A stretch of 64,000 bases of DNA from Alphaproteobacteria bacterium (GTDB taxonomy: Bacteria > Pseudomonadota > Alphaproteobacteria > Rickettsiales > UBA8987). The stretch's first letter is position 1. Every line of letters begins with the position of its first letter. The stretch covers positions 5,229-69,228 of the forward strand of contig JAUIEX010000002.1 in the NCBI GenBank assembly GCA_030429725.1, written 5' to 3'. The position numbers and the translations under genes were made by a program. Shown piece after piece: positions 51,660 to 53,417 of this stretch. Below the pieces are notes generated by a model, which was not told the DNA's origin, ran no database searches, and was given only the letters and a program-made list of their open reading frames with translations.

Positions 51660-53417
51660 TCAGGCAATAATAATATCGGAAGCTGTCAGGCCAATCGCCC
51701 CGGTAACGGTCAATGTATCACCATCAATATTGAAGACGGACGTTGCGCCGGAAATAAACAGCCGCCCAATCGCCTCATCTGCCGTGGCAAACACCTGAGA
51801 AGAAAACTGAATTTTATCATCCCCGATGATAAAATCTGAAATCTCATCATTGCCGCCATTGGCATTATAAACAAACACATCATTCCCGGCGCCACCCAGC
51901 AACGTATCATTGCCCAAATCACCGGAAAGCGTATCATTGCCATCATTTCCAGCCAGCGCATCGTCATTCTGCCCGCCAAACACAAGGTCATCACCTTCGC
52001 CGCCATCCACAGCATCATTACCAATATTGCCATTGACTCGATCATTACCAACACCGCCGGAAACTATATCACTATCTTTTCCACCCAGAAGGTGATCATC
52101 CCCTTCACCGCCAATCACCGTATCAACACCCTGATTACCATTGGCAAAATCATTGCCTGCCTCACCCAGAATGGAATCATTGCCCATCCCGGCGCTCAAG
52201 CGGTCATCGCCCGCCTCACCAAACAGCGTGTCATCGCCCTCACCGGCTGTCACCGTATCGTTCCCGGCGCCGGTCTCAACCCTGTCATTGCCGGCATCAC
52301 TGGTAATCACATCATTACCTTCACCGGCAATCACCACATCCGCGCCGGCACCAGAGGAAAGAACATTATCCAGCTGATTGCCATAAAGCGTATCATCACC
52401 CACACCGGAAAAGGCATTATCCATATTGCTGCCCTCAGCATTCCAATAGCGTCCACTGCCCACTTGCGTCACCGAGGAAGAAGTCTCGCGCAGATCCAGC
52501 ACCACATTGCCTGCAAATCCCTGTGAATTGAACGTATCGTTCCCGCTACCGTCCCATAGAAGTTCCGCTCGCTGCGAGCCATCAAAGACATAGGTCGTAT
52601 CACCGGCATTATAAGCCAGATTCACCCCATAAAGCTGCTGCATGGCCTCAATATCATAAAACATCGGCGTATCCGGATATCCGGCAACGGCCGTATTCGC
52701 GCCAATAAAATTCTGCTGAAGAGAGATCGTGTTATCATAATTGGCAACTTCATAGAGAAAAGTTGCATTATTCCCATCGCTATCAATAAAGAAAGATGGA
52801 ATGTCTGAAACCGGCTCTTCGGGCCTTTCGGGCTCCTCATTATTCGCCATGTCCGCAAGATAAATAGCATATTCATCATAATATTCCTGCAGTGACTCCA
52901 GAAATGTCTCATCCTGAATACCACGCCCCCAGGCCATCCCGGAAGCAATACCAAAAGATTCTAAAAGAGAGGTAAAATTATATGAATTTGGAATATTTGG
53001 CTGAAAAGCCTCAACATTATAGAAGAGTGGATTATACGTTACCGTGGCATCAGTAATGGTAAAGCCGGCACCCTGCTCCGGGTTAACATTTATGACCGAA
53101 TCAACAAAAGTATTCTGGAAAATCTCCGGGTCATATTCATAACGGAAAGTGACATTGGCATTATCAGTTAAAAATGGATTGCCGGGATCTGTATCCGGGT
53201 GCGGGCTGTAAACAAAATCAATGTTAACATAGCGCTCCCAAACCTGCGCCGCCTGATGCACCGATGCCAGAAATGTCTGGTTTACCACCGGCGTTGTCAC
53301 ACCAAACTGATTAACCTGCTCAGTCCCCTCAACGGTATATGTCACTGTCGCCTTGCCATTGACCGTTGGCCATGACCGCCCGGAAAGTAACGCTAACGCA
53401 TAAAAAGAGGTGCTCAT
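51660..53417 (-). CDS. RTX calcium-binding protein with a degenerate serralysin-like (M10B) N-domain; probable type I secretion substrate
   Basis: 585 aa. Serralysin-like landmarks are present (AAQVWERYVNIDFV; PMFYDIEAMQQLYG). About 17 GGxGxD nonapeptide repeats follow (GNDVITSDAGNDRVETGAGNDTVTAGEGDD...). The C-terminus ...ASDIIIA looks like a T1SS signal. There is no HEXXH and only 3 His in the whole protein. Confidence 0.75.
   Translation of the reverse strand: MSTSFYALALLSGRSWPTVNGKATVTYTVEGTEQVNQFGVTTPVVNQTFLASVHQAAQVWERYVNIDFVYSPHPDTDPGNPFLTDNANVTFRYEYDPEIFQNTFVDSVINVNPEQGAGFTITDATVTYNPLFYNVEAFQPNIPNSYNFTSLLESFGIASGMAWGRGIQDETFLESLQEYYDEYAIYLADMANNEEPERPEEPVSDIPSFFIDSDGNNATFLYEVANYDNTISLQQNFIGANTAVAGYPDTPMFYDIEAMQQLYGVNLAYNAGDTTYVFDGSQRAELLWDGSGNDTFNSQGFAGNVVLDLRETSSSVTQVGSGRYWNAEGSNMDNAFSGVGDDTLYGNQLDNVLSSGAGADVVIAGEGNDVITSDAGNDRVETGAGNDTVTAGEGDDTLFGEAGDDRLSAGMGNDSILGEAGNDFANGNQGVDTVIGGEGDDHLLGGKDSDIVSGGVGNDRVNGNIGNDAVDGGEGDDLVFGGQNDDALAGNDGNDTLSGDLGNDTLLGGAGNDVFVYNANGGNDEISDFIIGDDKIQFSSQVFATADEAIGRLFISGATSVFNIDGDTLTVTGAIGLTASDIIIA

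Follow-up and report, generated by a model that had tools for sequence, protein, structure and literature searches.

A serralysin-like RTX protein without a zinc site, a probable pseudo-protease encoded beside a gene transfer agent cluster

A 64-kb stretch of alphaproteobacterial DNA (contig JAUIEX010000002.1, assembly GCA_030429725.1; "the window" hereafter, at its full length) carries, between parE and a cluster of RcGTA-type gene transfer agent (GTA) genes, a gene for a 585-residue protein with RTX repeats, called here the RTX protein. We conclude that the product of this gene is probably a pseudo-protease descended from a secreted metalloprotease of the serralysin type (MEROPS M10B-like), a protein that would bind rather than cut and that is a neighbour of the GTA cluster only. 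The zinc-binding and catalytic residues have all been replaced, and therefore, judging from the residues present, the RTX protein cannot hydrolyse peptides by the metzincin mechanism.

We label the window protein P0001 and the homologues of its N-terminal domain (N-domain) P0002-P0006, and refer to P0001-P0004 as the clade; L009 to L015 are the loci of these homologues. The gene and the parts of its product are as follows.

51660..53417, minus strand: gene of the zinc-less serralysin-like RTX protein, a complete open reading frame (ORF) of 585 aa plus stop, from the ORF list and its translation
52608..53417, minus strand: N-terminal metzincin-fold domain, catalytically degenerate, residues ~1-270; P0002-P0006 match residues 6-183 at 33-42% identity
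53211..53252, minus strand: helix A and strand motif AAQVWERYVNIDFV, residues 56-69, aligning to AprA SLQSWSDVTNIHFV; W60 and F68 are conserved family-wide
52929..52961, minus strand: remnant of the HEXXHXXGXXH motif, ESFGIASGMAW, residues 153-163, from a column alignment with active relatives
52782..52928, minus strand: clade-specific insertion after the former third His, residues 164-212 (49 aa), found only in P0001-P0004
52716..52733, minus strand: Met-turn remnant NTISLQ, residues 229-234, with Met changed to Ser (S232) and the zinc-ligand Tyr to Gln (Q234)
52626..52667, minus strand: helix C motif PMFYDIEAMQQLYG, residues 251-264, aligning to serralysin PLLDDIAAIQ(K/H)LYG
51840..52418, minus strand: RTX beta-roll, residues 334-526, with ~20-22 calcium-binding nonapeptides in an unbroken 9-residue register
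51663..51839, minus strand: C-terminal cap and putative type I secretion signal, residues 527-585, ending ...GLTASDIIIA

Loss of the zinc site

By direct count, the RTX protein has three His (residues 54, 73 and 442), zero Cys and a pI of ~4, and neither HExxH nor HxxEH is present anywhere in its 585 aa. An initial annotation, made from the sequence of the window, had reported an ORF of 585 aa with three histidines and no HEXXH, which translation and direct count bear out. The segment that it proposed as the site of the missing motif, SLLESFGIASGMAWG (residues 150-164), was well chosen: it includes the motif remnant, and HEXXHxxGxxH homologues align exactly over it. In the same columns P0005 reads LLHELGHGVGLAH, the second family gene of L009 LLHETGHALGLAH, the relative P0009 MHEIGHALGLKH and the window protein LLESFGIASGMAW, the remnant being aligned with HELGHGVGLAH (P0005), HETGHALGLAH (L009 paralogue) and HEIGHALGLKH (P0009). 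The family profile places this segment on the active-site helix of AprA, THEIGHTLGLSHP. Within the remnant His has become Glu (E153), Glu has become Ser (S154) and the two further His have become Ile (I157) and Trp (W163), while both Gly are kept. Position 163 is Trp in 4/4 clade members (P0001-P0004) and His in 31/31 active relatives.

The Met-turn has changed as well. Column 232 holds Met in at least 90% of 36 aligned relatives and Ser in the window protein; position 234 is Gln in 4/4 clade members and Tyr in 24/31 active relatives. The initial annotation had taken PMFYDIEAMQQLYG for the Met-turn region, an assignment that has to be corrected, since this motif is the helix after the Met-turn and the Met-turn proper is NTISLQ (229-234).

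No conserved His was found elsewhere in the RTX protein, H54, H73 and H442 not being invariant even within the clade, and there is therefore no relocated His-based metal site. The profile alignment confirms the loss of the three His ligands and revealed no intact metal site elsewhere. As the protein lacks the defining catalytic features of serralysins, it is to be filed as a non-peptidase homologue and not as a serralysin.

Domain architecture and predicted fold

Against Pfam, the RTX protein matched HemolysinCabind (PF00353; E = 4.4e-62, 13 stretches) and Peptidase_M10_C (PF08548; E = 5.7e-11, 43 bits vs a cutoff of 20.7). The Peptidase_M10 catalytic domain (PF00413) gave no match with the RTX protein alone; it was matched by the HEXXH-bearing L009 paralogue (5.9e-5) and by P0009 (1.1e-8), and by 25 of the 36 aligned relatives. 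The NCBIfam model Zn_serralysin (NF035945) scored 115 bits vs a cutoff of 500, its alignment being confined to residues 219-378, and solved serralysins were matched by sequence over residues 219-347 only (E = 6e-10). These domain features are far beyond chance.

An AlphaFold2 model of the RTX protein, built with 36 sequences, reached a mean predicted local distance difference test (pLDDT) score of 90 and a predicted TM-score (pTM) of 0.80. In a Foldseek search of the PDB, the top 25 matches were all serralysin, PrtC, AprA or psychrophilic alkaline proteases (E = 5e-16 to 6e-12), and the alignments to serralysins spanned the whole chain of the model. Global TM-scores were modest (0.33-0.51), since serralysins have a far shorter beta-roll. 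A family profile of six N-domains (A3) matched AprA and serralysin at 5e-5 from the active-site helix to helix C; at helix A the same profile gave weak matches to AprA, myroilysin and MMP-20. Within helix C, residues D255, I256, A258, Q260, L262, Y263 and G264 vary little or not at all across all relatives.

The serralysin (M10B) scaffold named in the initial annotation is thus supported both by the family profile matched to AprA and by the serralysin matches in Foldseek, and the structure prediction that it had suggested as a check recovered the serralysin fold (pLDDT 90; Foldseek E = 5e-16). The annotation had also considered that the N-domain might turn out to be unrelated to M10B; homologues, profile and fold all point to serralysins.

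The beta-roll of the model consists of 22 short strands with a 9-residue spacing (334-526; pLDDT mostly >90) and is followed by a capping domain. Listing the register gave ~20 nine-residue units over residues 338-517, with a strict GGxGxD in only 4 of them. The RTX repeats described at first are therefore real, and their number, put at ~17 GGxGxD nonapeptides, is not: strict GGxGxD occurs 4 times, among ~20 units in register.

A rare family that keeps the dead site

Using residues 1-281 as the query, phmmer (HMMER) was run against 1.84 billion representative proteins. Apart from the query, homologues of the N-domain numbered only five, P0002-P0006 (E = 7.5e-41 to 2.5e-16, 33-42% identity); a further 52 matches were limited to the helix-C region (residues ~187-281). 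HExxH is present in P0005 and in all 52 partial matches, and absent from P0001-P0004 and P0006. The family amounts to six 50%-identity clusters among the 1.84 billion representatives. Other collections added little. A word-indexed search of 5.8 billion proteins gave 0 matches for the N-domain alone, and for the family alignment P0006 and one weak match. The scan of GTDB species representatives yielded cyanobacterial RTX-repeat matches only, and the JGI metagenome scan with the family alignment only the known Ga0316204 contig and generic LYGAN-motif serralysins. No member was found in an IMG/VR scan with the family, and tblastn of the N-domain against PLSDB plasmids gave no match. The family is very rare.

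Common to P0001-P0004 is a derived signature, GLAWG(R/Y)GI…SDIPS together with Gln at the Tyr position. The insertion that contributes to it is made up of GRGIQ, a long helix (170-191), an acidic Pro-rich linker and SDIPSF, with a low-confidence linker at 203-207 in the model; the long helix is present in the window protein and in P0004. All clade members have S204, D205, P207 and S208, which active relatives lack. Among the family loci ParE is 64-70% identical, terminases 47-67% and RTX proteins 31-44%. Since well-separated lineages share the replacement signature and keep the frame intact, the dead site is maintained and not decaying. The sharing of this signature across four lineages argues for long-standing purifying selection on what would be a non-catalytic function. 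The word "retained", used of the protein in the initial annotation, is justified in the same way, by one derived signature in four lineages whose ParE is only 64-70% identical. An independent Logan contig carries an identical parE and the identical first 429 aa of the RTX protein.

In a neighbor-joining (NJ) tree, P0001-4 fell together at 59% bootstrap, a grouping to which the shared indel and signature are added, and P0006 fell with its HEXXH-bearing neighbour gene at 98% bootstrap. These last two genes form a pair:

L009:2404-5312, plus strand: tandem pair of family genes, 48.5% identical, directly upstream of GTA g1

The first gene of the pair, P0006, is zinc-less (RAIGQALGLSN) and lacks the clade insertion; the second, of 495 aa (L009:3825-5312), retains HETGHALGLAHP. 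Their grouping and their adjacency identify them as a tandem duplicate pair. The site loss in P0006 is independent of that in P0001-P0004 and followed the tandem duplication, which makes two losses in all.

Predicted secretion and mode of action

The last 85 residues of the RTX protein align end to end, weakly (E = 0.007), with those of PML (...SLSADGIVI), a family I.3 lipase exported by a type I secretion system (T1SS). All family members end in Asp plus 3-5 hydrophobic residues, and an Asp and hydrophobic C-terminal tail is the pattern of serralysin-type T1SS signals. From its RTX repeats and its C-terminal match to T1SS lipases, the RTX protein is predicted to be secreted. The beta-roll and the tail would mark it as a type I secretion substrate, unfolded as long as it is in the low-calcium cytoplasm and folding once it binds extracellular calcium. 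Outside the cell it may act by binding, through a remodelled cleft, some protein or peptide ligand, or it may itself be part of the surface or matrix. The initial annotation had likewise proposed a binding or adhesin module.

A HlyD_3 protein encoded at 135..1199 of the window was considered as a T1SS component and ruled out, as it is followed by an AcrB pump of the resistance-nodulation-division (RND) type.

Genomic neighbourhood of the RTX gene

The following features adjoin the RTX gene in the window.

53421..55421, minus strand: parE, DNA topoisomerase IV subunit B (TIGR01055 parE_Gneg, 808 bits vs a cutoff of 723)
51591..51659, minus strand: spacer of 69 nt from the RTX stop to the g1-like gene, holding GACTGCCCTGAA (51633-51644) and CACTGCCGGA (51618-51627)
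51081..51590, minus strand: g1-like small ORF of 169 aa, matching the small ORF of L012 by BLASTP (E = 5e-6); first gene of the GTA cluster
35043..51262, minus strand: RcGTA-type head-tail cluster with large terminase, portal, S78 protease, capsid, tube, Gp84_N/BR0599 hub and GTA_TIM/Rcc01698_C, assigned by Pfam

The junction between parE and the RTX gene reads TAA GAT ATG, with 3 nt from the parE stop to the RTX ATG, and no AGGAG-like (Shine-Dalgarno) sequence lies within 15 nt of that ATG. At the other end, a same-strand ORF (51081..51590) follows 69 nt after the RTX stop, and no terminator-like site was predicted in this spacer. Both junctions had been described accurately in the initial annotation: an ATG 3 nt past the parE stop with no recognisable ribosome binding site (RBS), and 69 nt before the first GTA ORF. 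The coupling to parE that it proposed holds for the 3-nt junction but not as a general feature, since the gap is 3 nt in the window only and 84-248 nt in homologues. A reading of the upstream parE as a ParE toxin was ruled out by the TIGR01055 match, which makes it topoisomerase IV subunit B; a toxin of the YafQ/ParE superfamily, separate from this topoisomerase gene, does lie 2 kb away within the GTA cluster.

Gene orders at the family loci, where terL is the large terminase gene, are as follows.

Window: parE, RTX, g1, terL, (RelB/YafQ), portal, onward
L012 (P0004): parE, RTX, 118-aa ORF, terL, 175-aa ORF, portal
L013 (P0003): L28, parE, RTX, 104-aa ORF, terL, then unrelated genes on the other strand
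L009 (P0006): opposite-strand amino-acid permease, then RTX, RTX, 100-aa ORF, terL, portal; no parE
L014 and L015 (P0005, active form; NCBI GCA_054015435.1): parE, RTX, inverted terL and g1 unit
L010 and L011 (P0002): parE, RTX, prepilin-like ORF, hisS, prfA; no GTA genes

The RTX gene adjoins parE in 5/6 lineages and g1-terL in 5/6, every lineage having at least one of them, and the exceptions break the parE and the GTA linkage in opposite directions. Because the adjacency of RTX and GTA genes recurs across the family, it is not the chance of one genome, and the order parE, RTX, GTA fits an ancestral arrangement that has been eroded differently in each lineage. Beyond the family the arrangement was not met: 80 related IMG/VR terminase loci (48 with at least 2 kb upstream) had no serralysin-like or RTX ORF and no parE nearby.

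In L012, L013 and L009, the 10-mer CCCTTCC(G/T)G(A/G) precedes the g1 start by 72-75 nt. It is also found upstream of the inverted g1 in L014, where it has moved with g1-terL. The window spacer holds two weaker copies of it, CACTGCCGGA and GACTGCCCTGAA.

L012:4588-4597, L013:5854-5863, L009:5327-5336 and L014 ~13400-13410 (minus strand): the 10-mer upstream of g1

Its score of 34 compares with a shuffle mean of 29.4 (standard deviation 0.8, maximum 32; 100 shuffles). No CtrA-type TTAA-N7-TTAA sites were found in the spacers upstream of g1. Since the 10-mer has followed g1-terL in L014, the best reading is that of a control element of the GTA unit, located past the RTX stop, which suggests that the GTA genes have a control region of their own downstream of the RTX stop, with the 10-mer as its candidate element. 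The RTX gene accordingly looks like a neighbour of the GTA operon by inherited synteny and not like a member of it. The initial annotation had offered coincidence or co-expression as explanations for the position of the gene; chance in one genome can be dropped, and the position looks like inherited synteny with a separate g1 motif rather than membership of the GTA operon.

Further features of the GTA cluster and its surroundings

The g1-like ORFs have no match in PHROG, and that of the window has none in Pfam; their position before the large terminase is the same in L009, L012, L013 and L014. The window copy is 50-70 aa longer than its counterparts (95-118 aa) and overlaps the longest terminase frame (the two together covering window 49838-51590, minus strand) by 182 nt; the overlap of g1 and terminase is 23-38 nt in L009, L012, L013 and L014. 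The likely explanation is an internal start codon for the terminase or, alternatively, a lineage-specific extension at the C-terminus of g1.

Between terminase and portal lie genes for a RelB antitoxin (111 aa) and a toxin of the YafQ/ParE superfamily (95 aa) (49123-49792, minus strand). Other small ORFs occupy this junction elsewhere (175 aa in L012, 51 aa in L009), and it looks like a variable slot inside the GTA cluster. A tRNA-Arg(CCT) gene is found on the opposite strand within the cluster (40822-40898, plus strand), between a gene for a 200-aa protein (41038-41640) and the Gp84_N/BR0599 hub gene (39936-40778). Some 1.6 kb past GTA_TIM/Rcc01698_C lies a gene (32480-33424, minus strand) whose 314-aa product has DUF2793 and K1-lyase_C domains and could be a tail-fibre-like protein of the GTA. 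In L010, the RTX gene is followed by a gene for a 244-aa protein (L010:11647-12381, plus strand) with a weak prepilin-type N-terminal methylation motif and a pilin PHROG match.

Five housekeeping proteins of the window, EF-Tu, EF-G, S7, HisF and ParE (8226-12030, 53421-56269), each form a 90%-identity cluster of their own in a set of ~15 billion proteins. Represented by one NCBI contig of 78 kb and one Logan contig, the source lineage is small and poorly sampled, and its RcGTA-type cluster marks it as alphaproteobacterial.

Alternative explanations

Several observations weigh against our reading of the RTX protein as a secreted binder that is only a neighbour of the GTA genes. Genes for the ATP-binding cassette (ABC), membrane fusion protein (MFP) and outer membrane factor (OMF) components of a T1SS are absent from the 64-kb window, as the initial annotation had stated, the only HlyD-type MFP (135..1199) being paired with the AcrB RND pump. 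The 17-21 kb around the homologues in L010 and L014 hold no T1SS genes either, and for this reason secretion is a step that we infer. No PHROG, PADLOC-type or other functional family matches the N-domain. In the window itself the copies of the 10-mer are weak (7-8 matches of 10-12), and, given the 3-nt parE junction and the lack of a predicted terminator, transcription may run on here from parE across the RTX gene and into the GTA genes. The lineages number six only, so few that inherited and functional synteny are statistically inseparable.

The same gene order could mean that the RTX protein is an accessory factor of the GTA, expressed together with the GTA genes or shortly ahead of them and leaving the cell by secretion or through GTA-linked lysis. 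Folded by calcium, it would decorate particles or bind the producer or recipient surface protein that its active ancestor cleaved. We regard this as unlikely. It would account for a family gene that, in the window, L012, L013 and L009, immediately precedes g1 and terminase on the same strand and in L014 stands beside the inverted g1-terL unit, for the RTX pair of L009 that stays with GTA genes in the absence of parE, and for the short spacers between RTX and g1 (69-99 nt, with no terminator predicted in the window). Yet the gene stays with parE in L010 and L011, where no GTA genes come after it, it is still intact in L013 and L014, where only g1 and terL are adjacent, and the conserved motif located past the RTX stop and ahead of g1 has followed g1-terL in L014. 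Such a neighbour was seen at 0/80 related terminase loci, the protein has no PHROG match, its matches among BFVD folds are only generic RTX or metalloprotease proteins, and full-text literature searches show no GTA link to serralysin or RTX proteins. It would be a long shot to suppose that a serralysin-type exoprotein was recruited to the GTA and twice, independently, made into a non-catalytic binder, serving either as a calcium-folded extracellular partner of the particle (for example a detachable decoration or receptor-binding adaptor) or as a factor that binds and does not cut a cell-surface protein of producers or recipients, with the order RTX-g1-terminase reflecting co-regulation by parE read-through.

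Two other explanations concern the protein itself. The gene might be the decaying relic of a protease, with no present function, which would be in keeping with the loss of all catalytic residues, the lack of a recognisable RBS and the extreme rarity of the family. This we consider very unlikely, as the frame runs unbroken over 585 codons, two independent assemblies agree exactly on the first 429 of them, scaffold residues are conserved, W163, GRGI, SDIPS and Q234 are invariant in four lineages (ParE 64-70%), the RTX register is unbroken across ~20 repeats and the fold is predicted with high confidence. Alternatively, the protein could still be a hydrolase, with a different metal site or chemistry drawn from clade residues (E153, D205, S204, S208 or the insertion). 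SDIPS and GRGI are strictly conserved beside the old active site, and conservation of a remodelled cleft would fit a new activity, but there is no conserved His anywhere, E153 itself varies (N, S and S in P0002-4), the region has no match to any catalytic family, and no Ser-His-Asp or other recognisable constellation is present, which makes this explanation highly improbable. A maintained, non-catalytic binding protein therefore remains our preferred interpretation.

Pseudo-enzymes derived from secreted bacterial proteases have been little studied, and our full-text literature searches returned no report of a zinc-less serralysin or a serralysin pseudo-protease. The present family is a clean natural example, in which active and inactive members occupy the same genomic slot and, at one locus, stand side by side. 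The site was lost twice independently. A conserved signature (His to Trp, Tyr to Gln, insertion) points to a new function and not to decay, and what a dead metzincin cleft binds is a question that can be tested directly in this family. The GTA-adjacent position was probably inherited; were it functional, GTA biology would gain an unexpected component that is extracellular and calcium-dependent.

Comparison with known systems

With the genes g1-g15 of the RcGTA cluster and its accessory structural proteins the RTX protein has no homology, its comparisons giving no PHROG match, only generic RTX or metalloprotease proteins in BFVD and only M10_C and RTX domains in Pfam. It resembles the T1SS family I.3 lipases (PML of Pseudomonas sp. 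MIS38, LipA of Serratia) in having an RTX beta-roll followed by a C-terminal cap and putative secretion region, and Foldseek matched these lipases at E = 7e-6 to 2e-4; its N-domain, however, has the metzincin fold, whereas theirs has the alpha/beta hydrolase fold of a lipase. SapA of Caulobacter (NF051884), an alphaproteobacterial serralysin-like protease that edits the S-layer, was matched over residues 245-371 (E = 1e-9). SapA is an active zinc protease, and the window protein scored 37.7 vs the cutoff of 1200 and so is not a member of that family.

A further likeness is to the HEXXH-bearing P0005 and L009 paralogue, at 30-39% identity over the full length. The RTX protein has in common with them the N-terminus M...LALL.G.SW, a family-specific NPF motif, the C-terminus and the location beside parE and/or g1-terL. 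These two differ in keeping HE(L/T)GHxxGLAHP and the Met of the Met-turn and in lacking the GRGI...SDIPS insertion, and are presumably active proteases, to judge by those residues.

With serralysin/PrtSM, Pseudomonas AprA, Dickeya PrtC and the psychrophilic alkaline proteases, the RTX protein shares the common plan of a metzincin domain and a C-terminal RTX beta-roll. Helix A (W..V.NI.F), helix C (DI.A.Q.LYG) and the Asp-plus-hydrophobic tail are those of the M10B serralysins, which are also its best fold matches. Unlike them, it is without HEXXHXXGXXH, the catalytic Glu, the Met of the Met-turn and the Tyr ligand, it has a 49-residue insertion and a much longer beta-roll (~20-22 nonapeptides), and no T1SS or inhibitor genes stand beside its gene in the window. 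Non-peptidase homologues are catalogued for many peptidase families, so that the idea of such a protein is not a new one, and the RTX protein would join them as a derivative of the serralysins.

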